Shown here: positions 34,855 to 58,749 of the stretch, one piece after another
Numbering within the stretch: position 1 is the first letter of the stretch
How the letters are laid out: every line of letters begins with the position of its first letter
Source: a virus
Lineage: Duplodnaviria > Caudoviricetes
DNA: 64,000 nucleotides
Direction: 5' to 3' (one strand)
IMG/VR virus record: IMGVR_UViG_2908764845_000006
Span: 32,001-96,000 of that record
Notes under the pieces: model-generated
Database searches by the model: none
The model's input: only the letters and a program-made list of their open reading frames with translations
What the model was told of the DNA's origin: nothing
Made by a program: the position numbers and the translations under genes

Positions 34855-34929
34855 TCCACCCGACCCACTTCACCCGGCCCCGTTCGCATCGGGGCCTTTT
34901 TCATGCCTGCCAACCAAGGAGACCACCCG

Positions 34930-35178
34930 ATGTCCACAACGCTCAACACCGACCTGTCGCGCCGCGCCCACCAGCTCGCGGCGATCGCCGCCGAGAACGC
35001 CAACAAGTTCATCCGCCGCGAGATGCAGGCCGGTGGCCTGTCCCGTCAGCAGATCGTCGCCGAGTGCGGCGCCGGGATGAAGGCGATCGACTTCCTCGCC
35101 GACATCCGCCGCGTCCTGTCCATCCGCCCGACGGCGAGCGATCGCCGCGTGCTCAAGCTCGCCAAGTGCGATTTCTGA
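34930..35178 (+). CDS. Hypothetical protein
   Basis: Hairpin + AAGGAGACC leader. Confidence 0.7.
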   Translation: MSTTLNTDLSRRAHQLAAIAAENANKFIRREMQAGGLSRQQIVAECGAGMKAIDFLADIRRVLSIRPTASDRRVLKLAKCDF

Positions 35179-35188
35179 GGAGGCCGCA

Positions 35189-35383
35189 ATGACCAAGCGA
35201 CGCAAGCTCACCTATCACGGCAAGCGCTTCAACCTGCGCATCAGCGACACACCCTTCGGACTCTTCGTCCACCTCGATCCGAAGAGGGCGCCGAAGCGCG
35301 GCGGCTACAAGACCAAGTCGTGGCGCTTCGCCACGTTCAAGCACGCGACGATGTTCTGCCAAGACGTCGTCCAAGACATCTGA
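35189..35383 (+). CDS. Hypothetical basic protein
   Basis: GAGGAGG RBS. Confidence 0.6.
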   Translation: MTKRRKLTYHGKRFNLRISDTPFGLFVHLDPKRAPKRGGYKTKSWRFATFKHATMFCQDVVQDI

Positions 35384-35413
35384 ACCGCAACCCCCGACAC
35401 AAGGAGACCACCC

Positions 35414-35632
35414 GTGATCGACTTCTGCAACATCGACAATGCCAAGAGCTACGCCACCGAAGCGAACCTGATGAAGGCCCTCGCGACCCTGGGCCTCGAC
35501 CAGATGCGACCGGTCATCGTGCGCAACCGGGAGGGGCGCTTCACCGCGATCTTCGGCCTCCACCTCTCGGGCATGGCGTGCAGCGGCAACGTGATGGCCG
35601 CTGCCAACCACGGCTTCAAGACCATCAACTGA
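35414..35632 (+). CDS. Hypothetical protein
   Basis: AAGGAGACC RBS, GTG start. Confidence 0.65.
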   Translation: MIDFCNIDNAKSYATEANLMKALATLGLDQMRPVIVRNREGRFTAIFGLHLSGMACSGNVMAAANHGFKTIN

Positions 35633-35643
35633 GGGCAACGAAC

Positions 35644-35817
35644 ATGAACACGAACAACCGGCGGACGCGCTTTCCCGAACTCGCCTACGCCCAGCACGCC
35701 AAGGACCTGTGGCGGATCATCGCCACCGACACCGATCAGGCGGTTGGCCCGCACTACAGGACGAAGGCCGAACTGCTCGCCGATCTCGACCGCTACGCCA
35801 AGGAATTTGGTTGCTGA
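35644..35817 (+). CDS. Hypothetical protein
   Basis: MNTNNRRTRF... Confidence 0.55.
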   Translation: MNTNNRRTRFPELAYAQHAKDLWRIIATDTDQAVGPHYRTKAELLADLDRYAKEFGC

Positions 35818-35914
35818 AACTCACGTCCGAGCGCCGCCGATGTGCGGCGCTCCAGCGTGCGCTTCCTGCACGACCGTTTCGCAGACGGTTCCTCAAACTC
35901 AAGGAGACCATCCC

Positions 35915-35983
35915 ATGTCCTACCAACAGAAGCTCGAACTACTCCGCAAGCTCGCCCTCCAGCAATACCGCCACGGCAAGTGA
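35915..35983 (+). CDS. 22-aa micro-ORF
   Basis: Full hairpin + AAGGAGACC leader; MSYQQKLELLRKLALQQYRHGK. Confidence 0.5.
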   Translation: MSYQQKLELLRKLALQQYRHGK

Positions 35984-35997
35984 GAGGAGCGACGCAC

Positions 35998-36300
35998 ATG
36001 GCTGGCACCAACACGCACTACACGATCCGCGAAGCCAAGGCGATCCTGGCCCAGCACGGCATGACGATCTCGTCCGACGAGGGCGAGTATCGCGTCGCCT
36101 TCAAGATCGAGCACCACTCGGCGAGCGCAAGCCACGCCAGCGGCTACTGGACGGTCGGTCGCAAGACCTTCACCGGCGCCGGCGCCGCGATGGACGCCCG
36201 CAACGCCGCCGAGGGATCGTCCTACTACACCACCCAGCTGGTCGACGCGATCGGCACCGGCATCGAGATGGCGCGGCACGAAGCTGGGAGGGCCGCATGA
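35998..36300 (+). CDS. Hypothetical protein
   Basis: GAGGAG RBS. Confidence 0.6.
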   Translation: MAGTNTHYTIREAKAILAQHGMTISSDEGEYRVAFKIEHHSASASHASGYWTVGRKTFTGAGAAMDARNAAEGSSYYTTQLVDAIGTGIEMARHEAGRAA

Positions 36301-36491
36301 CCCTCACGCAGCTGCAACGCTACGAGCTCGCCCGCCGCAAGCTGGCCGATGGCAACATCGCCTTCATGGAGATGGTCACCCACAAGACCAATCCGATGAC
36401 CCGCGAGGATCTCACCGCGCTGATCAAACTCCGGCCGGAGCGCTACTCGCGCTTCTCCGGCTGGCTCGACGTCCTTCCCTCCCGCAACTGA
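36297..36491 (+). CDS. Hypothetical protein
   Basis: ATGA overlap; GGAGG RBS. Confidence 0.6.
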   Translation: MTLTQLQRYELARRKLADGNIAFMEMVTHKTNPMTREDLTALIKLRPERYSRFSGWLDVLPSRN

Positions 36492-36507
36492 CAAGGAGAC
36501 CCCGACC

Positions 36508-36732
36508 ATGGCTACCAAGATCAAGACCTTCCGCCTCGGCTCGTCCCCAATGGTGTCCGCGCCCGGCATGGTGCGATGGGCGATCGCCGGCGCCAAGTTT
36601 CCGCGGGATCGCAAGACCGTCGCCAACGTCATCGCTCAGACGTGGAGCGTCCCGATGGCCGCAGCGATCAAGCTCGTCACCCAGACCGTGCCCTTCACGG
36701 TCGAGGGCGAGACCGTCGTGTTCACCGCCTGA
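36508..36732 (+). CDS. Hypothetical protein
   Basis: AAGGAGACC RBS. Confidence 0.65.
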   Translation: MATKIKTFRLGSSPMVSAPGMVRWAIAGAKFPRDRKTVANVIAQTWSVPMAAAIKLVTQTVPFTVEGETVVFTA

Positions 36733-36745
36733 CAGGGAGCCCACC

Positions 36746-36988
36746 ATGAAAGTCTACCTGACCCGCACCAAGGCCGTGACCGTCGCCGACTATCCCGCCG
36801 CCTCCAAGGCGGTGCGCGCCTTCATCGAGAAGGGCGATCTCGGCGCGGGCTGCGGCTCCTCGCTGGAGGCCTTCACCGGCGGCAACATCGTCGACGGCAA
36901 GGGCAAGATGATCGCCCACGTCTCCTACAACGGCCGCGTCTGGCCCGGCACCGAGTGGAAGCCGGGCCTCAAGCCGCTGTTCGGCTGA
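36746..36988 (+). CDS. Hypothetical protein
   Basis: IAHVSYNGRVW motif; GGAG RBS. Confidence 0.65.
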   Translation: MKVYLTRTKAVTVADYPAASKAVRAFIEKGDLGAGCGSSLEAFTGGNIVDGKGKMIAHVSYNGRVWPGTEWKPGLKPLFG

Positions 36989-37062
36989 CCCTCACCTCAA
37001 CCCCCGATCTTCAACCCGGGCCGCCTTCGCAGGGCGGCCCTTTGCACAAGGAGACCATCCCA

Positions 37063-37515
37063 ATGACGACCAAAGCCATTTCCGCCGTCCTCGCCGACAC
37101 CCGCAGCCCGGCTGCGCAGAAGGCATTCATCAACGCCTTCGCCGACGCGCCGCTGATCCCGCTCGAAGAGCAGATCGCGGACCTCGAGGCCAGGTTGGAC
37201 GCCATGGTGCTCAAGGCCGAGACCGGCGCGCAGTGGGCCGAGATTTGCCGCATCGAGCGCAACGAGATGATCCCGCTGCTGCGCCAGAAAGCGGTGCCGG
37301 TCGACCCGATGCGCAAGACCGCCTCGTCGATCGAGCACGGCACCAAGTTCTCCAAGTCGCAGGTCCAGTGGATCATGGACCACGACTGGGCGGTGCGCTC
37401 GCTGATGGGCGCCGTCGTCGTGATCGACCGCTTCACCTACAACGGATCGGCCTACGCCGAGTATTTCGTCTGGGCCGGCACCTTCAACGAGCTGCGCGAC
37501 TGGGCGGGGTACTGA
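37063..37515 (+). CDS. Hypothetical protein
   Basis: Hairpin + RBS leader; ends in LRDWAGY. Confidence 0.7.
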   Translation: MTTKAISAVLADTRSPAAQKAFINAFADAPLIPLEEQIADLEARLDAMVLKAETGAQWAEICRIERNEMIPLLRQKAVPVDPMRKTASSIEHGTKFSKSQVQWIMDHDWAVRSLMGAVVVIDRFTYNGSAYAEYFVWAGTFNELRDWAGY

Positions 37516-37518
37516 GCC

Positions 37519-37737
37519 GTGGCCCTGCACACCATGGACGTCGACCGCGGCTTTAGGCGTGAGACGATTGTCACCTGCTTGGTCGATATCTCCTCCGGCG
37601 TTGCCGGTGAGATCACCTGTATCGAATGCGGTGGCGATGGTGATTGGACCAAGTTTCACCCCGAGCCAGAGACGTTGACGGCGCCGATGCGGTGCATCGA
37701 GTGCAAGGGCACCGGGCGCATCTACGTGTCGATCTAG
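37519..37737 (+). CDS. DnaJ-type Zn-finger small protein
   Basis: CIECGGDG and CIECKGTG. Confidence 0.55.
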   Translation: MALHTMDVDRGFRRETIVTCLVDISSGVAGEITCIECGGDGDWTKFHPEPETLTAPMRCIECKGTGRIYVSI

Positions 37738-37790
37738 GTGGTCCACCCCGGACACCTCTTTTCAACTCGCAACCCCAAGGAGACCATCCA

Positions 37791-38267
37791 ATGCGAAAGC
37801 CCAAGACAATCACCGTGCAGCGCGGCCGCGTCGTCGGAGAAGGCGCAACCAAGACGCTCGCCAACGCCGACCTCGCGAGCAAGATCGACTTCCTGTGCCA
37901 CGCCGAGGGCGCGCACATCGAGGTGCGCTTCGGCCTCGTGCTGATCGTCTGTTCCGGCCCGACGGCCGAATGGAGCTACCAGGTCGTCGACCCCGCCCAT
38001 GAGAGGGAGGGCAAGGTGTTCTATCAGAACGGCCTCGGCGGAAACCTCACCATGCGTCAGGCGATCTCCAGGGTCCGCCTCTACGCCGCGCAGCGCGACT
38101 GGAAACCGCAGATCGGCGACGACGAGGGCTTCATCGCCCGCGCCGAGTGCCAATCCGAGCAGGAACGCGACCTGCGCCACTGGATCAAATGGCAGCGCAG
38201 CTACGCCGATCTGATCAAAGCAGGCAAGACGCACGCCGAGGCCCACCAGCAGGCGACGGGGTACTGA
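37791..38267 (+). CDS. Hypothetical protein
   Basis: AAGGAGACC RBS. Confidence 0.65.
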   Translation: MRKPKTITVQRGRVVGEGATKTLANADLASKIDFLCHAEGAHIEVRFGLVLIVCSGPTAEWSYQVVDPAHEREGKVFYQNGLGGNLTMRQAISRVRLYAAQRDWKPQIGDDEGFIARAECQSEQERDLRHWIKWQRSYADLIKAGKTHAEAHQQATGY

Positions 38268-38270
38268 GCG

Positions 38271-38547
38271 ATGACCCATCCCAACCTCCGCAACTTCATG
38301 GACCTGTCGACCGCGCATCTCTCGCCGACGACAAAGCGAGAAAGTCTCCGGCGAGTTCGCCCTCAACCACTGGGTCGCCGCCACGCCCTACGGCTGGTTC
38401 CTGTACTGCGACGAGGAGAACGCCGAGGACTCGATCCCGGCCGATCTGTTCGCCTGCATGACCTACGCCCGCCAGAACGGCGCCGACTACGTGCTGTTCG
38501 ATCAGGACGCCGACGCGCTCGACGATCTGCCGACCTTCGAGAACTAG
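38271..38547 (+). pseudogene. DUF5983-like gene with a frameshift near 38335
   Basis: DLSTAHLS in one frame continues as YGWFLY...IPADL...DYVLFDQDA...LPTFEN in another. Confidence 0.55.
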
Positions 38548-38549
38548 CG

Positions 38550-38729
38550 ATGGGCCGGCACAAGGGCCGCGATCCTCCGAAGTCGCACTGCATCCGAGGT
38601 CACCGCCTGCACGGCAAGAACCTCTACGTCCAACCCGACGGCGCCCGCGTGTGCCGTCGGTGTCGCGCTCTGAGCAAGATGGACTACCTCCGCCGCCTTC
38701 GCGGCACATCACCAAGGAGAAAACGATGA
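38550..38729 (+). CDS. Small Zn-binding protein
   Basis: HCIRGH...RVCRRC. Confidence 0.55.
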   Translation: MGRHKGRDPPKSHCIRGHRLHGKNLYVQPDGARVCRRCRALSKMDYLRRLRGTSPRRKR

Positions 38730-39031
38730 TGACCATTGCATATGACGTGACCGTCCGCCGCATCGGATACGGCGGTGGCGACATCCGGCTCCACGTGTTC
38801 GCTGCCAGCGAGCAGATGGCAATGGATCGCGCCGTCGATCAAGCCAAGCGCAAGAGCGCCATGCCACCGCGTCACCGCCGCTACGCGGTGTTCGCTGCGG
38901 TGGCGTGCGAGGTGTCGCTCGACCAGAGCCGCACCCGCCACGCCGCCCCCTTCGCCAAGACCGACCGCGGCTTCATGCGCCGCGCCGAGCGCCAGTCGAA
39001 GCAGATCGTTCGCAGCGCCTGCTTCGCCTGA
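38726..39031 (+). CDS. Hypothetical protein
   Basis: AAGGAGA RBS. Confidence 0.6.
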   Translation: MMTIAYDVTVRRIGYGGGDIRLHVFAASEQMAMDRAVDQAKRKSAMPPRHRRYAVFAAVACEVSLDQSRTRHAAPFAKTDRGFMRRAERQSKQIVRSACFA

Positions 39032-39062
39032 TCCACCAACCCAAGTCAGCAAGGAGACCACC

Positions 39063-39488
39063 ATGCCGAAAAGCAACTGCAAGCACTTCCCCAACGCCGA
39101 TGACCACTGCCTCGTATGCGAGACCGAGCAGCGCGCGGCGATGCGGTCCAGCGTCTACAACGACGAGCGCTCCACGTTCGCGCTGCACGCCGTGACCGCC
39201 TTCCGAGATGTCTGCCCCGGCAGCCGGAACGAAGATGGCAGCCCGCTGATCGAGGAGGCCGTCGGCGACCTGATCGCCAACCTGATGCACCTGTGCGTCA
39301 AGCACGGCGTCGACCCGCTCAAGCAGATCAAGAACGGCGTCTGCCACTTCGCGGTCGAGACCATCGAGCCCGACGGCGTGAGCCATGAGGCGCAGTTCAA
39401 CTACACCGTCTACGCCAGACCGTACGCCTCCGGCGAGAGCTGGCAGCTGTTCGACTGGCGGAACCCGCCCGCATCGAGGGAGACGTGA
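39063..39488 (+). CDS. Hypothetical protein (helical DLIANLMHL family)
   Basis: Hairpin + RBS leader. Confidence 0.65.
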   Translation: MPKSNCKHFPNADDHCLVCETEQRAAMRSSVYNDERSTFALHAVTAFRDVCPGSRNEDGSPLIEEAVGDLIANLMHLCVKHGVDPLKQIKNGVCHFAVETIEPDGVSHEAQFNYTVYARPYASGESWQLFDWRNPPASRET

Positions 39489-39577
39489 GCGATGCCCGTC
39501 ACGACCATCGCCGCCATCGTCCTCGCCTTCATCGTCATCAGCGCGCTCTGCGCGCATCGCTACGGGAGACCGCATCC

Positions 39578-39865
39578 ATGACCAAGACGCTCACGTCCGG
39601 CGACCGGGTCGCTTACGCCGCATCGTTCCTCAAGAGCACCGGGCAACACACCGGCGCCGCGCCACAGCGGCGCGGCACCTTTGTTTCCTATTGGGTATCC
39701 AACCCGGACTTCGCCCGCGTGCACTGGGACGATTTCGAGCAGATCGCTCCTCAGCTCGCCGAGCAGTATGGCGATGATTACGTGGCCGACGCCCGGTCCT
39801 GCGGATCACTCGTCCATGCCAAGAACATCGCAAAGATCGGGTCGGCGCGTTTCGCGCTGACGTGA
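39578..39865 (+). CDS. Hypothetical protein
   Basis: GGAGACC RBS. Confidence 0.6.
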   Translation: MTKTLTSGDRVAYAASFLKSTGQHTGAAPQRRGTFVSYWVSNPDFARVHWDDFEQIAPQLAEQYGDDYVADARSCGSLVHAKNIAKIGSARFALT

Positions 39866-39890
39866 CCGGCGTGTTCGAGGTCGTGGCGTC

Positions 39891-40046
39891 ATGAGCTACC
39901 ACGAGCGGGACGTGCGTCCCACCGACTGGGTGCTGACGCTCGCTGACGGCACCACCAAGACCGTCACCATCTACGACAACCGCCATCTCCGCGAGGAGAT
40001 GGCACGGCTCGGCGCCAAGCGCGCCGAGCCGACCGAGGCCATCTGA
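39891..40046 (+). CDS. Hypothetical protein (51 aa)
   Basis: Open frame filling the gap; GAGG RBS. Confidence 0.45.
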   Translation: MSYHERDVRPTDWVLTLADGTTKTVTIYDNRHLREEMARLGAKRAEPTEAI

Positions 40047-40064
40047 CATCAACAGGAGACTGCC

Positions 40065-40310
40065 ATGAATACCGAGATCAAGACGCTCGAAGATTTCGAG
40101 CGCGCCTGCAACGCGCACGACCTCACCTACGCCTACTCAGATGATGGCGAATGCTACAGGCGAGGCCGCAACAGCGAGGCGCGCATCGAGAAGGCCGCGG
40201 AGAACTTCCCCCGCGCAGACGTGGAGCGCATCTGGAATGCGATGGTCGACCGCAGGCTGGTCGACTTTGCCCGTGCCGCCTTCTATTGGCGCTGGCCCAA
40301 CAAGGGCTGA
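40065..40310 (+). CDS. Hypothetical protein
   Basis: HDLTYAYSDD motif; AGGAGAC RBS. Confidence 0.65.
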   Translation: MNTEIKTLEDFERACNAHDLTYAYSDDGECYRRGRNSEARIEKAAENFPRADVERIWNAMVDRRLVDFARAAFYWRWPNKG

Positions 40311-40367
40311 CCATCACCCCACCACCAAACCCGCCGTTTCGCAGACGGCAATCAAGGAGACCATCCC

Positions 40368-40756
40368 ATGAAGTCCATCGTCCCGAACTACCCGATGCCC
40401 TCGCAGTCGATCCTCGTCCCCAACGAGACCGAGGTCCGCGTCCGCCTCTGGGCGACGTCCTCCGTAACCATCTCGTGGGTCGAGATGGGCATGATCCTGG
40501 CCGCGCACGTTGTGCTCGGCTTCCTGATCGGCCTTGCGACGACGACCCGGCGGCATTCGCCGCCGCCGTCGTTGCGATCTGCTCGCGCTCCGGCGGATCG
40601 CCGGCGGACCGAGAACACCTCCAGCAGTTCGGAGCGACGTGTCTCAACGCCAGCATGAACGGCGCCGACGCCGCCCTTCGAGCGTTCCTCGCAGCTGACT
40701 GGGAGCTCTTCACCGGGCATCCGCCCTGTCAGTACGTCGCACCTCGCGACAAGTAA
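40368..40756 (+). pseudogene. Gene with an apparent frameshift near 40535
   Basis: Full leader; coding-like sequence continues in another frame (DDDPAAFAAAV...PRDK*). Confidence 0.45.
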
Positions 40757-40802
40757 CCCACTCACCCCCGTTCGCAGCGGGCTCAACAAGGAGACCGCCA
40801 TC

Positions 40803-40980
40803 ATGACGAACGAAGATCGCCGACAGCACGGCCGCGCCGTGCTGCAGACTTACGAGGCCCTGCCGGGCGTCGAGACCCGCGCCGATGGCGCCCGACCTCC
40901 GCCACACCGTGTCGATCGACGTGTTCGCGAAAGCGGTCAGCCTGTCGGAGACGCACTTCCATGCCGAGGCAGGCCGATGA
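40803..40980 (+). pseudogene. Short gene with an apparent frameshift near 40885
   Basis: Full leader; alternative frame DLRHTV...ETHFHAEAGR*. Confidence 0.4.
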
Positions 40981-41358
40981 GGAAATCCCTAATTATCCAG
41001 ATGACACCACAATACACAGCATCTAGGAATATAAGCTAAACAACTGATTTTGCGGCGCTTTCCATACCATGAGTTTTCAGAAGCTTGCGAGACGCAGCAA
41101 CAGACGCAGTGATTGACGCCGAACCGAATCTCTGCGCATAAACGAACATCCGCTTGCAGGCGGGGTGTTGTCTGTTCCGTATCCAAGCGGGCGGATGTTC
41201 TGCCTAGAAGTCCCGCCTCGGCTCCACACCGGGGCGGGCACGGCCCCTTAAAAGGAGAGCCGGATCGCAAGCCCGAACTTGGGAATGCGGGAAGCGCAGT
41301 CAGATGCCTCCCCTCCTAAAGACAGGCGGCGATTCGGTCAACGGGAAACTGTGACTCG

Positions 41359-42138
41359 ATGGATCGCAAAGAGACTGTCTACGAAATGCTAGAGCGTCGA
41401 GAACGCGAACTTACGCATGAACTCGCCGGGCTAAAGGGTGAGATTGATGTGCGCGAGAACGAACTTGCGCACGTTCGATCAGCTAGACGGCAGATTGATA
41501 TGCTGGGCGGTAATGACGCCGCGCGATTTGGCAAACTTTCCGGCGTCGCTGCAACAGGAAATCCAATCGAAGATTCCGCCAGTGGACCGACCCTTGAAGG
41601 CGTCGTTAATGTTGCAATTGGCGTTGGCTCACTCATAGCAAAAACATCTAGGATTATAGCGGAAGCACAAGACCGCAATCCATTTTTGCAGTTCGAGGGT
41701 CTCACGATTAAACAACTAATCGTCAAAGCCCTAGGTGACCATTTCCTGAATGGCGCTTCTGCCAGCGAGCTTCGAGATTTCATTGAAAATGCGTATGACC
41801 GGAATATCGAGCGGTCTAGTCTGACGCCGCAGTTGTCGCGACTTAGGGACGAAGGAGTCGTCGAATATTTTCAGCCGCAGAGCGAAACCGAAACCGGACC
41901 AAAAGCCTTTGTGGTCGCCCGCCAGTTTAATTCAGCTATTCGTCGTTTCCCGCTTGGCGCTGAGCTTGTGGTTCCGGACGACGCTGATGCACTTCGTATT
42001 CTCAAGAAAGAATTAGAGCCGCGTGAGCTTGAGGATTTGATAAAGCGCCGCTGGATCGTTCCGCATGGCGCGGGCCTTTGGAGACTCGCGCACCAGGGTT
42101 CCAACCATCCTACTTTGATTGAGGGAAAAGCAGGGTGA
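41359..42138 (+). CDS. IS passenger protein with winged-helix-like segment
   Basis: 259 aa, lower GC; ERSSLTPQLSRLRDEG. Confidence 0.65.
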   Translation: MDRKETVYEMLERRERELTHELAGLKGEIDVRENELAHVRSARRQIDMLGGNDAARFGKLSGVAATGNPIEDSASGPTLEGVVNVAIGVGSLIAKTSRIIAEAQDRNPFLQFEGLTIKQLIVKALGDHFLNGASASELRDFIENAYDRNIERSSLTPQLSRLRDEGVVEYFQPQSETETGPKAFVVARQFNSAIRRFPLGAELVVPDDADALRILKKELEPRELEDLIKRRWIVPHGAGLWRLAHQGSNHPTLIEGKAG

Positions 42139-49628: not shown

Positions 49629-49631
49629 ACC

Positions 49632-51498: not shown

Positions 51499-52737
51499 AT
51501 GAGTCATTTCGCAGTTCTAGTGATCTCGCCGACCGAGCTCACCAAGGAAACGATCAAGCCGATGCTGCAGCCTTGGCACGAGTTCGAGTGCACCGGCTTC
51601 GATGACCAATATGTCGTCGATGTCGACAAGACTGAAGAGGTCCTCGCCGAGTATCGCGAGCAGACCCGCTCGATGATCCGTTCCCCTGACGGCATTCAGG
51701 TCGCGGCCCACGACGATCGGTTCTACCGCAACCCGACCGAGCAGGAGCAGCAGATCATGGGCAAAGTCCCGGGCACGGGAAGTCGCGGCGATTTGTCGTG
51801 GACGAGCAAGGACTGGGGTGACGGCCGGGGCTATCGCGGCAAGGTGCACTTCGTGCCTGACGGATATAGCAAGGTGGAAGTGCCGTGCAGCGAGGTCATG
51901 ACCATCGCCGAGTTTATCGACTGGTGGCACAGCGGCAAGATCGTTCGCAGCGAGGCCGAGATCGACCGGAGCGGCGAGCACAAATACGGCTACGCGCTCA
52001 TTGCCGAGAACGGCGATTTGATCCGGATGATCGACCGCACCAACCCGAACCGGAAATGGGACTGGTGGGCGGTTGGTGGCCGCTGGTCGGGCATGCTCGC
52101 CGCTCCCGGCTACGATCCCGAGAAAGACCCGGCCAATCAGGAGACCTGCACCCTGTGTGGCGGTTCCGGCAAGCGTACGTTTCGGGCGGAGGAGATCGTC
52201 TGCAACAAGTGCGATGGCAGGGGCACTGCGGTCAAGTGGCCGAGCAGCTGGGTCGACACCGGCAACCACGCCCAGCTCAAGGACATCCCGCTGGAGGCGA
52301 TCCGCAACCACGCCGAGATCGAGGCGCTCAAGCGGTTCGACGAGGCGCAGGAGGTGATCGCCGGCCGGGGCTTCAAACGGTGGGACGAGGTCAAGGCCGA
52401 CAATGGCGGCGACATCGACAAGACCCGCGAGGCCTACCGCGGCCAGCAAGTGCTCAAGGACCTCGAGGAAGCCAAGCTGGTCAGCTTCTTCGATGACGAC
52501 GAGATCATCGGACTGTTCTGGATGTCACGCGCAGATCGGGCCACCCGCGCTCGCAACAACGCGCTTCGCACCTTCGCCGTCGTCAAGGACGGTCAGTGGT
52601 ACGAGCGCGGCGAGATGGGTTGGTTCGGGTGCGTCGCTGACGAGAAGGACTCCGAACAATGGTCGCGCGAGTTCGCGGCCCTGCTCGACGGCCTGCCGCC
52701 CGAAACCTGGCTCGCCGTCGTCGACTGCCACATCTGA
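51499..52737 (+). CDS. Hypothetical protein with inserted DnaJ-type Zn finger
   Basis: MSHFAVLV...NPNRKWDWWAVGGRW, CTLCGGSG, CNKCDGRG, terminal VVDCHI. Confidence 0.75.
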   Translation: MSHFAVLVISPTELTKETIKPMLQPWHEFECTGFDDQYVVDVDKTEEVLAEYREQTRSMIRSPDGIQVAAHDDRFYRNPTEQEQQIMGKVPGTGSRGDLSWTSKDWGDGRGYRGKVHFVPDGYSKVEVPCSEVMTIAEFIDWWHSGKIVRSEAEIDRSGEHKYGYALIAENGDLIRMIDRTNPNRKWDWWAVGGRWSGMLAAPGYDPEKDPANQETCTLCGGSGKRTFRAEEIVCNKCDGRGTAVKWPSSWVDTGNHAQLKDIPLEAIRNHAEIEALKRFDEAQEVIAGRGFKRWDEVKADNGGDIDKTREAYRGQQVLKDLEEAKLVSFFDDDEIIGLFWMSRADRATRARNNALRTFAVVKDGQWYERGEMGWFGCVADEKDSEQWSREFAALLDGLPPETWLAVVDCHI

Positions 52738-52798
52738 TCTGAAACCCCAACCGGGGCCGCTTCGCAGGCGGCCCCATCATTCCACAAGGAGACCAACT

Positions 52799-54754
52799 AT
52801 GACTGACATCACCATCAACGGCCTGACCCGCGCCGACATCAAGGCGGGCGAGACCTACGAGTTCCGCATGGGCGGCAGCGTCCAGAGTATCGAGGTGCGC
52901 GCCGTCGGCGACGACGGCTTCATGACCCAGTTCGGCCCGATGCCGTGGAGCAACGCCGGAATGTTGACCCGGCCGACCCCGGCGACGACCATGGACACGC
53001 CGGAGATCAGGAAGATGGTCGCGGATGCGGCCGCCGATGCCGAGGCCGCGCCCCCGAAGAGCCGCAGGACTAAGGCGAAGGCCGAAGCCGAAGCCAAGGC
53101 CGATGTTGCGGCCGAGCCGCCTGCCCCGGAGCCCGCAGCGGTCCCGGCTCCCGCCAAGAAACCGCCCCTGACCCGCAGCCAAGAGATCGCGGCCGACGTG
53201 GCGGCGCTGCTCCGCGCTCGCAATCCGCTGTTGTGGATCGTCACCCGGGAGGAGGCCCGGGCCGAGCGCTACCTCGTGAGCGCCGCCGCCGCGGCTGGCT
53301 TCGTCCCGCGCATGTGGGATTGCGGTCAGGGCGTCACCGATGTCGCGGCCAAGGCCGAGAGCATCGGCTCCGCCGACATCGGCGAGACGCTCGGCGCCAT
53401 CCGCGCCCGGGCCGACGCCAAGTCCGACCGCGGCGCGTGGATCATGCGCGATCTGCCGCCGTGGCTGGCCGGGACCATTGGCATGGTGGTCTGCCGACAG
53501 GTGCGCAACCTGGCCCGCTTCCTGCCGGGCGTGGAGCGCGATGGCGCGCAGGCGCTGATCGTGCTGTCCCCGTCGGGCGATGTCCCGCCGGAGCTCGCCA
53601 ACCACGCCACGGTGATCGAGTGGCCGATGCCGGATCGCGCCGAGATCGCCAGCCTGCTGGACGACACGATCAACGGCCTGCCCGACGAGATGCGCGAGTC
53701 GGCAGCGCCCAACGGCACCCGGGAGGCGGCGATCGACTCCGCGATCGGGCTCACCGGCGAGGAAGCACAGGCCTGCTACTCGAAGTCGCTTGTGCAGCTG
53801 CGCAAGATCGACCCGACCGCCGTGTCGAGGGAGAAGAAGCGCGTCATCGCTCGCGAGAAGGTCCTCGAATGGTTCGACCCGATCCCCGGCGGCCTTGCGG
53901 CCGTCGGCGGTCTCGGCAACCTCAAGGACTGGCTGATGCAGCGTAAGCTCGCCTACTCCCCGGCCGCGCGTGCCTACGGCCTACCGGCGCCGAAGGGCTG
54001 CTTCCTCGTCGGCATCCCGGGCTGCGGAAAGTCGCTGATCTCGAAGGCGACCGCCACCGCCTTCGATGCGCCGCTGCTCAAGCTCGACTTGGGCGCGCTC
54101 AAGGGCAAGTTCGTCGGCGAGAGCGAGGCCAACATGCGCAAGGCGCTTCGCACCATCGAGGCGATTGGCCGCTGCGTGGTCTGGATCGACGAGATCGAGA
54201 AGGCCCTGACCGGGGCCACCGCCGGCGGCTCGGACGGCGGCGTCTCGTCGGACCAGCTCGGCGCGCTGCTGCAGTGGATGCAGGAGCGCACCAGCGAGTC
54301 GTTCGTGATCGCCACCGCCAACTCGGTGGCGACCCTGCCGCCGGAGCTGCTCCGCAAGGGCCGCTTCGACGAGTTCTGGTTCGTCGACCTGCCGAACCCG
54401 AACGAGCGCGTTGAGATCCTCAACGCAGGGCTCAAGGCGCACGGCCGCAGCTTCTCGGACATCAAGGCCGAGGAGATCGCCAACGTGGTTGCCGCGACCG
54501 ACGGCTTCACCGGCTCGGAGATCGCAGCCATCGTCCCGGACGCCCTGTTCGCAGCGTTCGCCGACGGCGGCCGCCAGATCACCTGTGTCGATCTGGTGAA
54601 GGCGGCGAAGGCCGTGACCCCGCTCTCGGTCACCGCGAAGGACAAGATCGCGGAGCTGCGCAACTGGGCAGCTGGCAAGGCCCGTCGCGCCACCGACGAG
54701 TGGACTGCGGAGACGGCAAAGGTTCGCTCTACCGGCCGCGCCCTCGACATCTGA
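52799..54754 (+). CDS. AAA+ ATPase, Ycf46-like
   Basis: Walker A GIPGCGKS, Walker B VWIDEIEK, ATAN, LPPELLRKGRFDE; degenerate N-terminal AAA module. Confidence 0.85.
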   Translation: MTDITINGLTRADIKAGETYEFRMGGSVQSIEVRAVGDDGFMTQFGPMPWSNAGMLTRPTPATTMDTPEIRKMVADAAADAEAAPPKSRRTKAKAEAEAKADVAAEPPAPEPAAVPAPAKKPPLTRSQEIAADVAALLRARNPLLWIVTREEARAERYLVSAAAAAGFVPRMWDCGQGVTDVAAKAESIGSADIGETLGAIRARADAKSDRGAWIMRDLPPWLAGTIGMVVCRQVRNLARFLPGVERDGAQALIVLSPSGDVPPELANHATVIEWPMPDRAEIASLLDDTINGLPDEMRESAAPNGTREAAIDSAIGLTGEEAQACYSKSLVQLRKIDPTAVSREKKRVIAREKVLEWFDPIPGGLAAVGGLGNLKDWLMQRKLAYSPAARAYGLPAPKGCFLVGIPGCGKSLISKATATAFDAPLLKLDLGALKGKFVGESEANMRKALRTIEAIGRCVVWIDEIEKALTGATAGGSDGGVSSDQLGALLQWMQERTSESFVIATANSVATLPPELLRKGRFDEFWFVDLPNPNERVEILNAGLKAHGRSFSDIKAEEIANVVAATDGFTGSEIAAIVPDALFAAFADGGRQITCVDLVKAAKAVTPLSVTAKDKIAELRNWAAGKARRATDEWTAETAKVRSTGRALDI

Positions 54755-54866
54755 TCCACAAACCGCATGAGACCCGCACTGTTACGACAGTGCGGGAAGT
54801 GTCCATCCCGTGTACTATCAAACCGCGGTTTCGCAGACCGCATCATCCCGCAAGGAGACCCACACT

Positions 54867-55706
54867 ATGTCGATCATCAACACCACCATCCGTCCGGGCC
54901 GCATCGTCGTGCTGCGGACCACGATCACCGGCAACGTCAACTACACCAAGTCGGTCATCGAGGCCGAGCGCGTCGAGGCGGACGGCGCCAAGCGCGCCAA
55001 ATGGGAGACCGAGCGCGTCGTCATCAACCCGGACGAATACGAGGAGGCCACCACGCTGCGCGACAAGGTCCGGCAGACCATCGCCGGCCTGTGCATCAAG
55101 ACCACCTTCGGCCTGCTCTGCTCGGAGGAGAAGGTCGAGAAGCTCGAAGCCGCGTTCACCGAGGCGCGCCGGCTCGCCGACGAGTTCAACGGCCGCGCCT
55201 CCACGACCCAGATCAACGTGTTCGTGATCGCGGGCCGGGTGGCAGCCGATGACGTCGAGGCGATGCGGGCGATCAACTCGGAGGTCCGCGAGCTGATGCA
55301 GGACATGGAGACCGGCCTGCAGAACCTCGATGCGAAGGCGGTGCGCGATGCCGCCAAGAAAGCGCGGCTGCTCGGCTCGATGCTCTCCGACGACGCATCG
55401 GAGCGGGTCAAGCAGGCCATCGAGACCGCCCGCAAGGCGGCCAACGACATGGTCAAGGCCGCTGAGACGAGCTCGGCCGAGATCGACCTGCAGGCGATCC
55501 GCAAGATCACGGAGAGCCGCACCGCGTTCCTCGACATCACCGGCGACAACGTCGAGATCGCGGCTCCCGTGCACGGCGCCCGCGCGCTCGACTTCGAGCC
55601 GACCGAGGGCCAGGGGCCCGCGTCCGCGCCCGAGGTCGACGAGGAGGTCGCGCCGATCGCTCCGGCCGCCCCGGCCGTCAAGGTGCCGCAGCTCGAGATG
55701 GACTAA
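54867..55706 (+). CDS. Helical hypothetical protein (AAA-associated)
   Basis: 279 aa, full leader. Confidence 0.7.
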   Translation: MSIINTTIRPGRIVVLRTTITGNVNYTKSVIEAERVEADGAKRAKWETERVVINPDEYEEATTLRDKVRQTIAGLCIKTTFGLLCSEEKVEKLEAAFTEARRLADEFNGRASTTQINVFVIAGRVAADDVEAMRAINSEVRELMQDMETGLQNLDAKAVRDAAKKARLLGSMLSDDASERVKQAIETARKAANDMVKAAETSSAEIDLQAIRKITESRTAFLDITGDNVEIAAPVHGARALDFEPTEGQGPASAPEVDEEVAPIAPAAPAVKVPQLEMD

Positions 55707-55778
55707 CGACAACGACCCCGGCGGGCTTCGCAGGCCCGCCGGCTTCGCTTCAAACCCCAACATTTCAAGGAGACCAAC

Positions 55779-56123
55779 ATGGCTTGTGACACATGGCGTG
55801 CCAACGAGAACCAGACCCTTACCGAGCGCAAGGAAGAGATCAAGCGCGTGATCGACCTCGTCGCGCAGGAGATCGTCAAGGGCCGCGTCAAGCCCAAGGT
55901 GGGCGCGCAGGGCGCGATCACCTTCGAGGGACTGGACGCCGTCACCGACCGGCGCGGCGTCACCGACGCCTGCGTCTACCGCCGGATCATGTCGACCGGA
56001 TCGGCAATGGCGAAGCAGCAGCTCGCCCGCGCCGAGCAACTGGCCGGACGCCGCGTCGATGCGAAGGCGCTCGCCGGCGGCCACCACTCTCACGATGGAG
56101 GCAAGACATGGCACAAGCATTGA
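55779..56123 (+). CDS. Hypothetical protein
   Basis: Full leader; ends in GHHSHDGGKTWHKH. Confidence 0.7.
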   Translation: MACDTWRANENQTLTERKEEIKRVIDLVAQEIVKGRVKPKVGAQGAITFEGLDAVTDRRGVTDACVYRRIMSTGSAMAKQQLARAEQLAGRRVDAKALAGGHHSHDGGKTWHKH

Positions 56124-56284
56124 AGCGCGGTGACGCTGTCGTCTGGCGCGTGTCGCTTGGCGTCGCCTTTCCCGGAGAGGTCGACACAGTGCGGGGCAAC
56201 GACGTCTACGTCCTGTTCCCAAATCGTGAGCGGCCCACGGGCGGTCACTGGCTGACCAGCGAAGAGCTGCAGCATGAGCGCTGA
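56108..56284 (+). CDS. Small SH3-like hypothetical protein
   Basis: GGAGG RBS. Confidence 0.5.
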   Translation: MAQALKRGDAVVWRVSLGVAFPGEVDTVRGNDVYVLFPNRERPTGGHWLTSEELQHER

Positions 56285-56543
56285 CCGAGACGGCTTCCTC
56301 GTGCAGGACCGGCCGTGCTCGACCTGCATCTATCGCAAGGACAGCCCGCTCGATCTAAAAAAACTCGAAGCCGACGTCGCCAATAAGCACGGCGGCTTCG
56401 AGGGCTATCGCGTCTGTCACCACTCGAACGACGCATGCTGCCGCGGCTTCTGGAACCGGCACAAGGACAAGTTCGCCATAGGGCAGATCGCCCAGCGGCT
56501 TGGCTTCGTGCGGTTCGTCCGCGACGACACTCTCAAAGACTGA
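56274..56543 (+). CDS. Cys-rich hypothetical protein
   Basis: PCSTC...CHH...CCRG. Confidence 0.6.
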   Translation: MSADRDGFLVQDRPCSTCIYRKDSPLDLKKLEADVANKHGGFEGYRVCHHSNDACCRGFWNRHKDKFAIGQIAQRLGFVRFVRDDTLKD

Positions 56544-56588
56544 CACCCCACCGCCTGTTCGCAGCAGGCGCATTCAAGGAGACCATCA

Positions 56589-56789
56589 ATGTCTGACGTA
56601 AGCTACGGCCCTTCACGGGCACAACGAGTGCTGGACCGTCACCGAGCCGACACCGGCCTCGAAGGCGATCAGGAGATCATGCTTACCCACCTGCTCGGCG
56701 ACATCATCGAGTGGTGCGATGCTCACAAGGTCGACTTCGACCTCGTCGTGCAGAGCACCCGCGAGATGCTGAGGGATGCCGCATCATGA
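56589..56789 (+). CDS. Hypothetical protein
   Basis: Full leader. Confidence 0.65.
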   Translation: MSDVSYGPSRAQRVLDRHRADTGLEGDQEIMLTHLLGDIIEWCDAHKVDFDLVVQSTREMLRDAAS

Positions 56790-56983
56790 GCGAGAAGAGC
56801 GTCATCGAGGACATCATCGAAGCCGCAGCCAAGCACGGCCGCGAGAGTGAGCCCGACCACGAGGTGGGCGACCTGCAGGACCTGCTGCGGGTGGCGTGGA
56901 AGATCATGGAGCCGCGGCAGCGCATCCGGTTCTGGAACCACGACACGACGACAGAGCTGCTCAAAGAGTGGGGAGGCATGTGA
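56786..56983 (+). CDS. Hypothetical protein
   Basis: HEVGDLQDLL motif. Confidence 0.6.
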   Translation: MSEKSVIEDIIEAAAKHGRESEPDHEVGDLQDLLRVAWKIMEPRQRIRFWNHDTTTELLKEWGGM

Positions 56984-57156
56984 TGGCCTTCCAGTACAAC
57001 GGCGACAAGTGCCCGAAGTGCCGGCGCTACATGATCGTGGCTCCGCCCATCCCGGCGAACTCGAACGATCAGGTCAAGTGCCAGGTCTGCGGCCATCAAG
57101 GCACGCTCGACGAGTTCGCCGAGGCATACGACCGCGACTTCCCGGAGGACGAATGA
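56983..57156 (+). CDS. Small Zn-ribbon protein
   Basis: CPKC...CQVC. Confidence 0.55.
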   Translation: MAFQYNGDKCPKCRRYMIVAPPIPANSNDQVKCQVCGHQGTLDEFAEAYDRDFPEDE

Positions 57157-57183
57157 CCAAGTCCCCCGAGCAGTGGCTCGCTT

Positions 57184-57366
57184 TTGGCGCTGGCGGCCAA
57201 CTTCCTCAGCGCCGCGCGTCTCAGCGGCGAAGAGCGGCGGCAAGCCCAGTCGATTGCCGCCGGCCTGCAGGAGCGCGCCCAGCACAGTCGCGAGCGTGCC
57301 GCGCAGGCCCCCAAGACGGAGGGCGTCATCGGCATCGCTGACGCCCTCAAGCGAAGCGCGAAGTAA
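57184..57366 (+). CDS. Hypothetical protein (start uncertain)
   Basis: TTG-start ORF; may be frameshifted from ATG 57153. Confidence 0.35.
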   Translation: MALAANFLSAARLSGEERRQAQSIAAGLQERAQHSRERAAQAPKTEGVIGIADALKRSAK

Positions 57367-57380
57367 CAGAGGAGATCATC

Positions 57381-57596
57381 GTGCGCTTCTATCAAGTCCA
57401 CCGTCTCGCCGAAGGCGGCCAGAGCGCCGGCTACGAATACTTCACCAGTAAGCGGGCCGCCGATCGGGCCGTCTCGGATTGGAGGGACGACGATCTCGAA
57501 CAGATCGCCAACGTTGAGCCGATCGACATCACGCCGACGAGGGCCGGCATCCTGCTGGCCCTCAATACCTACGCCAACCACGCCGACAACGGCTGA
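57381..57596 (+). CDS. Hypothetical protein
   Basis: GAGGAGA RBS. Confidence 0.6.
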   Translation: MRFYQVHRLAEGGQSAGYEYFTSKRAADRAVSDWRDDDLEQIANVEPIDITPTRAGILLALNTYANHADNG

Positions 57597-57640
57597 CCCC
57601 GGCCCGTTCGCAGCGGGCTTCAACAAGGAGACCAAAGACC

Positions 57641-58186
57641 ATGACGACACGTAAGCAGATGCTCGGTCGCGATCTCGCGACCACCCTCGACGGGATCACC
57701 CCTCCGCAGGAGCAGTTCATCGGGGCGGAGCAGAAGCGGCTCTACGAGCAGGAGGAGAAGCGCAACGACGCCATCAACGCCTGCGCCAAGGAGTGGGCTC
57801 GCATCTTCAAGGTCGACGGCGCCGACCTGTGGACCCGGACGATGCCGCAGGCGCTGTTCGACACGCTGGAGGGCTTCTCGCCGCAATGCGCCATCGTGGC
57901 GGCCGAGGCGTTCCTCAAGCAGTTCGGATGGAAGATCGAGCGGCCGGGCGACGAGACGCGCGCCGACGCCGTGCACGAGGCCCTCACCGGCCTCGTCGAC
58001 GAGGTGGAGAAGCTCTACCACCGCGCACCGCGTGAGAGCGACCTGCCCCATGAGCCCGGCGTCTACGCCGCCAACATGCCGGACAGTCAACGGTGGTCCT
58101 GCCCGTACCACCCGAACGAGATCGCCGAGCACATCCGCTCGAAGATCGACGGCATCGTCGAGATCGCGGTCAATCCCGCTCGCTGA
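57641..58186 (+). CDS. Hypothetical protein
   Basis: Full leader. Confidence 0.7.
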   Translation: MTTRKQMLGRDLATTLDGITPPQEQFIGAEQKRLYEQEEKRNDAINACAKEWARIFKVDGADLWTRTMPQALFDTLEGFSPQCAIVAAEAFLKQFGWKIERPGDETRADAVHEALTGLVDEVEKLYHRAPRESDLPHEPGVYAANMPDSQRWSCPYHPNEIAEHIRSKIDGIVEIAVNPAR

Positions 58187-58315
58187 AATAAAGGTGGGGC
58201 TGGAGTTCGCAGCTCCAGCCCCGGCTCAAGGGAGGTAAACCGCCAAGGAGACCATCCACGGGGTCCATCAACCAAGAGCATCCACATCACCTAACACAAA
58301 CAAGGAGACCTTCAA

Positions 58316-58599
58316 GTGACCAACACCGAAACGGTGCAAGAACAGCTGGGGATACTGTCTGGGTCCTCGTCATTGACACCCGGCACGGAACCGACGTGGA
58401 GACCTTCAAGACAAGGGAGGCCGCGGACAAGCACCTCTACGACTATTGCGACGAGTGGTGGGATCGCGAGTTCGGCGCCGCCAGCCGGCCATCGGACGAC
58501 AATCTGGTCGAAGCCTACTGGAATCGCATGAGCGACGAGGGCGAGGAGTGGTACGTGCTGGAGGAATGTAAAGTGAAGAGCCTCGAGGTCACCGAGTAG
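58316..58599 (+). pseudogene. Acidic small protein gene with an apparent frameshift in a G run near 58350
   Basis: RBS+GTG frame differs from the coding-like frame TVWVLVIDTRHG...EVTE*. Confidence 0.45.
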
Positions 58600-58749
58600 G
58601 ACCTCGCAAAGGAATTGGGCGCGGCGACTTCGCAGGTCGCCACGCCCAATCATAAGCGCCTGCCGATCCCAAGGAGACCATCCCCACGACCGGCGTCGCT
58701 TTCAAATGCAACATAAGGAGGAGCAATTGAGATTGCTATACGCGAAACG

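Follow-up and report, generated by a model that had tools for sequence, protein, structure and literature searches.

Introduction

Post-transcriptional coordination of early genes is known for very few phages, and phage early regions are full of small genes of obscure function. Among the systems described, the start-associated sequences (SAS) of Cluster K mycobacteriophages are asymmetric AGGAG repeats with a 13-bp consensus, GGGATAGGAGCCC, whose flanks are not explained by pairing with 16S rRNA (Pope et al. 2011, PMC3203893). There are 11-19 copies in each genome, placed only in the non-structural arm and in one direction; they lie 3-7 bp before start codons that are mostly ATG, at genes that follow larger gaps, and are nearly absent from the host (PMC3203893). 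Around half of the copies are accompanied by an upstream inverted repeat, the extended start-associated sequence (ESAS), and no function is assigned to the repeats (PMC3203893). The ESAS are imperfect 17-bp inverted repeats with conserved arms and a variable spacer; the changes seen in these arms give no support to an RNA hairpin, and the authors favour a DNA-binding protein (PMC3203893). Here, we describe a repeated element from a 64,000-nucleotide stretch of viral DNA (hereafter the window), which comprises bases 32001-96000 of a 111,990-bp provirus record of the Caudoviricetes (IMG/VR IMGVR_UViG_2908764845_000006; hereafter G000). The element consists of a hairpin with the fixed loop TTCGCAG and a Shine-Dalgarno (SD) box, AAGGAGACC, which recur together ahead of genes.

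Two further systems, both from T4-type phages, provide points of comparison. The promoter-early stem-loops (PeSL) join a terminator to an early promoter, and lie between variable-region early genes of obscure function (Arbiol 2010, PMC2839356; Comeau 2014, PMC4122927). PeSL are given a role in gene shuffling, with gains, losses and swaps of genes between close relatives ending in the motif (PMC2839356, PMC4122927). The T4 RegB protein cuts GGAG within an extended motif, GGAGRAYARAA, in early intergenic regions, the extension being unneeded for 16S pairing, and T4 RegA represses around 30 early messages, with late messages escaping (PMC3014915).

Results

Recurrence and anatomy of the hairpin and box

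An earlier note on the window, made without database searches, had drawn attention to the recurrence of TTCGCAG and of the box, and both repeats were recovered well above chance. The window has 29 copies of TTCGCAG where 12.6 would be expected, a count that none of 100 shuffles attained, and also 29 copies of the box AAGGAGACC, where 0.40 would be expected and no shuffle gave more than 2. All 19 of the stems listed in the note were found where it had placed them. Across the whole record, 285 perfect hairpins have a 7-nt loop and a stem of at least 5 bp; the loop reads TTCGCAG in 21 of these (18 on the plus strand, 3 on the minus), and no unrelated loop occurs more than twice. The record contains 42 exact TTCGCAG sites in total, 27 of which are flanked by perfectly paired arms of 4 bp or more.

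We pooled 92 exact-loop hairpins from five records, taking G000, G003 and G004 in full, 80 kb from the start of G001 and 60 kb from the start of G002. The hairpins of this set are perfect and span 15-31 nt, with stems of 4-12 bp, most commonly of 5 bp (35/92). They stand a median of approximately 10 nt after the last stop codon, in C/A-rich and G-poor flanks, and the first three bases 3' of the stem are enriched in T. A same-strand SD was identified within 90 nt of 85 of the 92 hairpins, and the exact box within the same distance of 79. Stem-to-box distances cluster at 5-7 nt (median 7 nt), and loop-to-box distances range from 3 to 82 nt. A T tract follows only 1 of the 92 exact-loop copies, in agreement with the earlier observation that most copies have no U-tract, and the copies all face the direction of the downstream gene, as had also been noted.

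The box has the consensus (C)AAGGAGACC(A). A start codon lies 2-7 nt after 113 of the 124 boxes examined, and is ATG in 98 of the 113; among the 11 boxes with no start codon, 6 belong to the double hairpins described below. The ACC that follows AAGGAG was held by the note to be superfluous to anti-SD pairing, and, judged by eye against the generally known anti-SD sequence, is indeed not complementary to the 16S tail.

The plus-strand island that carries most of these copies (34.5-58.7 kb) contains approximately 47 mostly small genes, with nearly no family matches. We identified hairpins in 18 of the 46 curated gene junctions of the G000 island, every one in a gap of 43-144 nt, and the 28 junctions with no hairpin mostly join overlapping or closely coupled genes with ordinary SDs. 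Since the hairpins occupy the larger gaps and the hairpin-free junctions are mostly overlapping or coupled, we consider that each unit heads a block of one to six coupled genes. A crude scan with the E. coli sigma-70 consensus found 1 promoter-like site in 31500-51000 (19.5 kb), against 2.6 expected, and this site lies outside the island; the same E. coli-tuned scan of 57900-59300 found 0 sites. As no sigma-70-like promoter was detectable within the island by this means, the gene blocks probably sit on long transcripts.

The folding model predicts that the hairpins form, with a mean closing-pair probability of 0.88 and values of at least 0.97 in 13 of 16 units. It also closes the loop further, by a U.G pair (probability 0.96) and a U-A pair (probability 0.56), leaving a CGC triloop. 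Searched by eye outside the hairpins, the plus-strand RNA partner of the loop, CTGCGAA, occurs only at 32238 and 50765; neither site lies in a convincing RNA gene, and a kissing partner for the loop was dropped. Pairing of the loop with 16S rRNA, likewise judged by eye, was also dropped, as the complementary stretch is helical and falls to the wrong side of the anti-SD.

Conservation of the loop and divergence of the stem

We aligned 87 copies of the hairpin for covariance analysis. The inner stems of this set take 44 different forms, with each of the five pairs varying on both sides, and pairing holds in 96.6% of cells, a value that is partly due to the construction of the set. The copies were selected for pairing, and orthologous units are hence a fairer test. 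We therefore compared G000 genes with an upstream unit to their orthologues in G001 and G002, the proteins of which are 36-76% identical. In the 14 orthologous pairs with a hairpin in both records the loop was the same in every case (14/14), and the stem was different in 12, although always perfectly paired. In six further pairs the G001 or G002 partner had no hairpin. Thus, the fixed loop on a changing stem inferred from the window extends to diverged relatives, and selection acts on the hairpin structure and on the loop, and not on the sequence of the stem.

We additionally identified six units in G002 (loci L130 and L131) with a 6-nt loop, TCGCAG, for example at record positions 46649, 45748, 33756, 27062, 26153 and 25770. 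Because of these six, the core of the loop is UCGCAG, with the first T dispensable.

Distribution across gene classes, hosts and relatives

All 31 boxes of the record fall in its non-structural arms, and 0 were found in 66 kb of structural genes. The late (structural) arm contains one hairpin only, at 14225-14251 on the minus strand, in which the TTCGCAG loop caps a stem of approximately 10 bp with a T-rich tail, in the shape of a canonical terminator. The earlier note had placed the element within the plus-strand island. The copies reported there stand, but the element extends beyond its limits, to 62241-62261 and 62437-62453, to the late-arm copy, and to five further hairpins past the right end of the window.

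The relative G002 is a prophage within a Bradyrhizobium genome of 8.5 Mb (G005), which enabled us to compare phage and host usage directly. In G005, 31 of 32 compound motifs are on the prophage-bearing contig C8, between 132,953 and 246,829, and 37 of 44 CAAGGAGACCA sites are in the prophage region (C8:141,521-246,817), with 7 outside, against 5 for a reversed control. The covariance model gave 28 matches in G005 among the 150 of 6541 first-look candidates that were scored, and 23 of them fall in the prophage region, against 5 outside. Among 301 genomes of the same family, more than two compound motifs were found in G005 alone. The note had asked whether the repeat might be a host repetitive extragenic palindrome (REP) or terminator family, equally common in non-phage DNA. 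Because the motifs of G005 are nearly confined to the prophage and are rare across the 301 genomes, the element is not a REP or terminator family of the host, nor is it the ribosome site that the host prefers, with the host evidence coming from G005, the host of a relative.

Searches of Rfam identified two tRNAs only in the whole window at gathering scores, and nothing in the region 34400-59200 at E values up to 1. No description of the motif was found in the searchable literature, subscription journals and supplementary files being outside the scope of this search, and the author of the note had likewise not recognised it. A motif scan of viral contigs returned at least 116 stretches. Among the 120 loci listed by the motif and protein scans, a true hairpin and box were present in 8; G001-G004 or G005 account for 7 of these, and one copy only was found at the remaining locus, L045. 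A contig from another phylum (L136), with an ATPase 66% identical to that of the island, had no repeated loop or box.

Double hairpins near the end of the island

Two further copies near the end of the island have a distinct architecture. In the first (58196-58290, not assigned to a strand), a 10-bp stem with a TTCGCAG loop (58196-58222) abuts a second helix, which has the tip CAAGGAGACCATCC and the box at 58245-58253. In the second (58614-58700, plus strand), a stem of 14 pairs with one C.A mismatch carries the loop at 58629-58635, and the box (58671-58679) is followed by ATCCCC; the helix around this box was judged by eye. Neither of the two boxes is followed by a start codon. In addition to the two in G000, one double hairpin each was identified in G001, G002, G003 and G004, and the arms of the second helix vary. 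In these elements both motifs are shown in loops from which translation cannot start, which is the strongest hint that the initiating ribosome is not alone in recognising the box. When viral contigs were scanned for the double hairpin, five stretches were returned: G001, G003 and G004 account for three, and the other two are matches by chance.

Read on the minus strand, the 10-bp hairpin of the first double hairpin is terminator-like in G000 (tail ACCTTTATTT), and T runs are present in G001 and G002; a comparison of the fold energies of the two strands was not decisive. The minus-strand reading has the outline of a small RNA. One role for this arrangement, which we regard as quite unlikely, would be that a minus-strand RNA of the double hairpin reads the leaders by base pairing, through complements of the box and of the loop, with two contacts per leader. 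The tip of its first hairpin would show GGUCUCCUU, the exact complement of the box including the ACC; the 10-bp terminator hairpin would come next, its loop, CUGCGAA, being exactly complementary to that of the leader; and a U tail would come last. A single phage RNA of this kind would pair with approximately 30 early leaders, shutting down or marking the early class, and host messages, being without the ACC and the loop, would be spared. A consensus scan of 57900-59300 found no minus-strand promoter for such an RNA. Alternatively, on the plus strand, the double hairpin would be a decoy that soaks up whatever factor reads the element.

The gene that follows the first double hairpin (58316-58599) seems to be frameshifted in G000, with a GTG start at 58316 and the body of the gene in another frame (58396-58599; 57% identical to G001). 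In the DNA run X3 (see below), 10 extra letters after 58342 shift the frame by one.

Gene gain and loss at the units

We compared the window, over 39000-58900, with contigs of three DNA runs (X3-X5) that hold 30-37% of the island words. The stretch 49877-50370, which is 494 nt long and comprises one gene and one unit, is missing in X3 and X4; both of its ends are inside hairpins (those at 49883 and 50367), and the joint left by the loss reads as a hybrid hairpin. A gap that removes the gene at 40065-40310 ends at the hairpin at 40333 in X3, X4 and X5, and X3 leaves the window directly after boxes at 40801 and 43666. Other gene-sized gaps (46042->46387, 49387->49626 and 56119->56291) stop at ordinary gene boundaries where there is no hairpin. 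By our own reading, with no formal test, approximately 8 of the approximately 26 joint ends listed are in or within 10 nt of a unit, and one of the joints listed runs from within one hairpin to within another.

The G000, G001 and G002 islands are mosaic. A blastn search of G000 against G001 and G002 was not informative for breakpoints, with coding identity of only 66-83%, and with match ends at units confounded with gene ends. The gene-flux joints of X3-X5 support a side role for the units as points of exchange. However, breakpoints at units are confounded, because whole-gene changes must end between genes, where the units fill the larger gaps. The proposal in the earlier note of a junction for gene cassettes finds some support in the unit lost between two hairpins in X3 and X4, and in the other joints at a hairpin or SD box, but does not extend to the gaps at plain boundaries.

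Positions of the units and boxes

The first gene of the island (ATG 34561) is headed by a box with no hairpin (34549-34557). The first hairpin unit (34876-34932) reads GGCCCCG-TTCGCAT-CGGGGCC followed by TTTTT, with the box at 34916-34924 and ATG at 34930. With its TTCGCAT loop and T5 tail, it is alone among the plus-strand copies in resembling a terminator, and its orthologues in G001 and G002 carry the TTCGCAG loop.

The units that follow are likewise on the plus strand. Stems of 4 bp are found at 40767-40805 (CCCG/CGGG, loop 40771-40777, box 40788-40796, ATG 40803) and, as GGGC/GCCC, at 50367-50404 (loop 50371-50377, box 50387-50395, ATG 50402) and 51463-51501 (loop 51467-51473, box 51484-51492, ATG 51499). 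Stems of 5 bp are found at 35873-35917 (ACCGT/ACGGT, loop 35878-35884, box 35901-35909, ATG 35915), 40333-40370 (GCCGT/ACGGC, loop 40338-40344, box 40354-40362, ATG 40368), 43636-43676 (CCCGT/ACGGG, loop 43641-43647, with the variant box CCAGGAGACC and ATG 43674), 44256-44313 (GGGCC/GGCCC, loop 44261-44267, box 44298-44306, ATG 44311), 49883-49923 (GGGCT/AGCCC, loop 49888-49894, box 49907-49915, ATG 49921), 54825-54869 (GCGGT/ACCGC, loop 54830-54836, box 54852-54860, ATG 54867) and 57602-57643 (GCCCG/CGGGC, loop 57607-57613, box 57625-57633, ATG 57641).

Longer stems are found at 56552-56591 (CGCCTG/CAGGCG, loop 56558-56564, box 56576-56584, ATG 56589); at 37018-37065 (8 bp, loop 37026-37032, box 37048-37056, ATG 37063); at 48015-48068 (8 bp, loop 48023-48029, box 48051-48059), where ATG 48066 begins the gene of a DUF4942 methyltransferase; at 52753-52801 (8 bp, loop 52761-52767, box 52786-52794), where ATG 52799 begins that of an AAA ATPase; and at 55718-55781 (9 bp, loop 55727-55733, box 55767-55775, ATG 55779). 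Two units have short stems within longer, interrupted helices, namely 46635-46698 (CGAT/ATCG, loop 46639-46645, box 46681-46689, ATG 46696) and 47682-47739 (CGGCT/AGCCG, loop 47687-47693, box 47725-47733, ATG 47737).

Further boxes on the plus strand have no hairpin. These lie at 35401-35409 (in a 30-nt gap), 36493-36501 (in a 16-nt gap), 37777-37785, 45345-45353 and 58302-58310 (followed by GTG 58316), and at 39051-39059, where the TTCGCAG at 39009 has a stem of 2 bp only. On the minus strand, we identified a complete unit at 62415-62453 (CCCTG/CAGGG, loop 62442-62448, box 62422-62430, ATG 62417), and a hairpin at 62241-62261 (CTCGGGC-TTCGCAG-GCCCGAG) that lies inside a called open reading frame (ORF; 62163-62417) with no box directly after it. 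Boxes with no hairpin were found on the same strand at 61530-61538, at a thymidylate-synthase-like gene, and at 62150-62158.

The unit at 35873 opens a mini-ORF of 22 codons (35915-35983), the stop codon of which overlaps the SD of the next gene (35998), and which may couple the two as a leader peptide. Between 41040 and 43320, a stretch of 2.3 kb has a G+C content of 0.59-0.60, against approximately 0.65, and ill-defined genes; X3 skips this stretch (joint 40801->42948), which is probably a foreign insert placed directly after the SD box of a unit. At 59144-59158 on the minus strand, a terminator-like hairpin with a T tail marks the end of a block of minus-strand genes (59178-64486) that converges on the plus-strand island.

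Genome context

The G+C content of the window is 64-69%. Judged by its genes, G000 is a temperate myovirus, because genes for a tail sheath, a baseplate and a tape measure lie, along with portal, terminase and head protease fusion genes, on the minus strand of its left arm. A tyrosine integrase is encoded at the right end of the record, with a YqaJ-type exonuclease and a single-stranded DNA-binding protein (SSB) nearby. We place the phage in a lineage of temperate myoviruses with Bradyrhizobium-like hosts. Its nearest portal protein within the phage collection is that of Brevundimonas phages, at 42% identity, and megablast found nothing to match 12 kb of island sequence among 50,697 phage records. 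The exceptions to the general want of family matches in the island are the DUF4942 methyltransferase and the AAA ATPase, the latter approximately 45% identical to an ATPase of Cluster O mycobacteriophages.

The gap between the diverging arms contains a 188-aa minus-strand gene, which is kept in G001 and G002. Beside it, within approximately 60 nt (window positions ~32190-32250, minus-strand reading), are five GGACA/GGGACA repeats, which look like operator or iteron sites of a lysogeny or replication switch. A ParA-like ATPase is common to G000 (8023-8676, minus strand, locus L142), G001, G002 and G003, and G003 additionally carries an ArdC gene and two ParB-like genes downstream of hairpin units (locus L132, 12025-17068). 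These phages may thus be maintained as plasmids, or have a plasmid-like partition system; G000 nevertheless has an integrase.

Discussion

We tentatively favour, at a probability somewhat short of even, the reading that the element is an RNA-level tag on early cistrons, recognised by a putative factor. We do so because the copies are oriented gene by gene, are tightly spaced to the SD, belong to one gene class and are absent from the host, and because the double hairpins display the box in a loop. The tag would be a two-part cis element, acting in the RNA of early, non-structural transcripts. Its first part would be a G+C-rich intercistronic hairpin with a stem of any sequence and a loop that must read UUCGCAG (core UCGCAG), and its second an extended SD box, (C)AAGGAGACC, with the start codon 2-7 nt downstream. 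The hairpin would insulate each unit and protect RNA ends, and the fixed loop and the ACC extension would be the contacts for a trans-acting reader, either protein or RNA, and more likely encoded by the phage than by the host. This reader would act on the early cistrons as a single class, whether through repression or activation of their translation or through cleavage next to the hairpin. The units, being repeated, would also provide short homologies for gene gain and loss as a side effect.

Several observations weigh against the RNA-level tag. We infer the transcripts, their ends and the RNA level of action, and the listed runs that hold this DNA include no RNA. A scan for reader candidates among the 54 island proteins identified only 7 weak Pfam families; the CsrA family has no match in the record; small CxxC/zinc-ribbon proteins are present, but are not common across the records; and the only clear protein shared with G003 is the ParA-like ATPase, with no reader candidate found. 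The motif is present in G003 and G004, although in the parts compared these two have almost no proteins in common with G000-G002; a reader from the host, or none at all, would account for this as readily as one from the phage. The covariance-model search of G005 scored 150 of 6541 first-look candidates. The box shows no special accessibility, with a predicted unpaired fraction of only about half (mean 0.50), and the stems that run past one mismatch do so with 4 C.A/A.C against 3 G.T/T.G, few cases for deciding which strand is folded. Finally, loops of the TTCGCAG type also cap two terminator-shaped hairpins, the late-arm copy at 14225-14251 (minus strand) and the TTCGCAT copy at 34876, which fit a simpler role at RNA 3' ends.

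A role at 3' ends is central to the alternative that the hairpins are passive, and that they stabilise RNA independently of any factor, or serve as insulators or weak terminators between cistrons, with no reader at all. The loop would then be kept for fast folding or stability, as is said of the especially stable or fast-folding CUUCGG hairpins of T4, and the box would be a strong ribosome site spread by the copying of one expression cassette. The position of the hairpins just after stop codons, their G+C-rich perfect stems, predicted to form and to close down to a CGC triloop, the two copies with real T tails and the enrichment of T in the three bases after the stem are all as this alternative would have them. 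Nonetheless, we judge it unlikely, as physics alone would suit the host too, yet the loop is nearly absent outside the prophage; seven loop bases and three bases after the SD survive a divergence to 36-76% protein identity; the box is never found at the late genes, for which high expression is required; and the box is also found in hairpin loops with no start codon. If the hairpins instead pause or stop the polymerase until a phage protein binds the nascent loop, with the site renewed at each unit, the element would serve processive antitermination in the manner of boxB, one of the roles proposed in the note. The small, free stem and fixed loop resemble lambda boxB, the first hairpin is terminator-shaped directly after the first gene and is kept in G000, G001 and G002, and the island is without internal promoters in the E. 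coli-tuned scan. We give antitermination a slim chance, since 91 of the 92 exact-loop copies have no T tract, which leaves little for antitermination to act on; G002 does not conserve the first gene, and the first-gene products have no N-like, arginine-rich N-terminus; and some 30 sites per genome, tightly spaced to the SD, are unlike nut sites.

The tag has also to be set against a role for the element in DNA, as a cassette junction at which a single-stranded hairpin or microhomology mediates the insertion, deletion or swapping of genes, in the manner of attC or PeSL. The joints of X3-X5 carry this proposal, namely the hybrid hairpin left by the loss of 49877-50370, the gap ending at 40333 and the departures of X3 after the boxes at 40801 and 43666, as do the YqaJ-type exonuclease and SSB encoded by the phage, and the mosaic islands of G000-G002. 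However, the gaps at 46042->46387, 49387->49626 and 56119->56291 end at plain boundaries, and whole-gene changes must in any case end between genes, where units fill the larger gaps. Moreover, the direction of the element follows each gene, in the diverging arms too, and it keeps a tight spacing to the SD; crossing over in the loop would mostly bring together arms unable to pair; and we saw no integron-type integrase or HUH enzyme, the one integrase matching the general Pfam family Phage_integrase only. A cassette junction would explain the spread of the element and not its fixed loop and box, and we accord it little probability. Last, the hairpin might mimic a tRNA anticodon arm, namely that of the host tRNA-Ala(CGC), as a decoy or site for a host enzyme that handles such arms, for example an anticodon nuclease; an operator hairpin adjoining the SD of E. 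coli thrS is a reported precedent. The tRNA-Ala(CGC) of G005 (contig C3, locus L146, 1462-1537, minus strand) has a 5-bp stem and the loop TTCGCAA, which matches at 6 of 7 positions; 5 bp is the commonest stem length of the element, and a U at loop position 2 and a purine at position 6 are as in anticodon loops. We consider mimicry most improbable: by a rough estimate approximately 6% of random 7-mers are within one change of some anticodon loop, stem lengths run between 4 and 12 bp, the one base that differs is invariably G, the six G002 copies with 6-nt loops break the 7-nt geometry, and we know of no candidate enzyme.

For early-gene coordination, this lineage offers a very clean case, with approximately 30 copies per genome, a fixed 7-nt loop on free stems and a fixed 3-nt extension of the SD, used by the phage and not by its host, and the search for a reader is thereby directly testable. 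It might also shed light on the unexplained SAS and ESAS repeats of mycobacteriophages. If the units are exchange points as well, they could help to explain the shuffling of accessory and anti-defence islands (ArdC in G003; the DUF4942 methyltransferase and SSB here). In alphaproteobacterial engineering, the hairpin and box could serve as a compact insulator and ribosome-site part.

Comparison with known systems

Phage lambda has two nut sites per genome, in which boxA partners boxB, a hairpin with a GNRA-like pentaloop, and which are read by the N protein through an arginine-rich motif. On these features, the element described here is like boxB in being a short hairpin with its specificity in the loop and a stem that varies freely, and differs from it in its 7-nt loop, in its approximately 30 sites tied to the SD, and in that no N-like protein was seen among the first-gene products. 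The promoters of phage N4 are used by a giant virion RNA polymerase, and consist of few hairpins with 3-nt loops. An N4-like promoter in single-stranded DNA, as entertained by the earlier note, finds no support here, where there are approximately 27 copies with a 7-nt loop and a loop-to-box distance that varies from 3 to 82 nt. The largest rough gene call, of 987 aa, has PHROG matches to NUDIX hydrolase, RNA ligase and head maturation protease, and no RNA polymerase match was found among the large proteins scanned. The T7-type RNase III sites that the note had also entertained are disfavoured by stems of only 4-12 bp. Integron attC sites are imperfect palindromes of 57-141 nt with R and L boxes and extrahelical bases, adjacent to the IntI integrase; the hairpins here are perfect and of 15-31 nt, and the only integrase is the Pfam Phage_integrase match at the end of the record. 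Intrinsic terminators have a U tract, which is wanting here save in 1 of 92 exact-loop copies, the exceptions in G000 being 14225-14251 (minus strand) and the TTCGCAT copy at 34876.

Compared with PeSL, the units are likewise small, composite motifs repeated between early genes, and some gene changes between relatives end at them. Unlike PeSL, they have no sigma-70-like promoter in or beside them, and the partner of the hairpin is a ribosome-site box; because the median distance from stem to SD is 7 nt, there is no room for a promoter between the two. The nearest functional parallel is T4 RegA/RegB, as a class-specific, phage-wide mark at early ribosome sites. The element differs from these in its ACC extension and its linked fixed-loop hairpin, and in being known from sequence alone; no relatives of RegA or RegB were found among the 54 island proteins, almost none of which have family matches.

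The placement of the box, its unexplained flanks, its restriction to one arm, its bias to ATG, its rarity in the host, its use at genes behind larger gaps and the inverted repeat a little way upstream all mirror the SAS of Cluster K mycobacteriophages. In contrast, the SAS consensus, GGGATAGGAGCCC, is unrelated to AAGGAGACC, and the host phylum and phage type differ. The hairpin in turn reverses the logic of the ESAS, with arms that are free and perfectly paired, and a 7-nt loop that is fixed. SAS and ESAS are the nearest parallel, and the element is a member of neither. Thus, judged from its recurrence and conservation across the genomes compared, the element is real, strongly selected and phage-specific, and we assign it to none of the families compared here.

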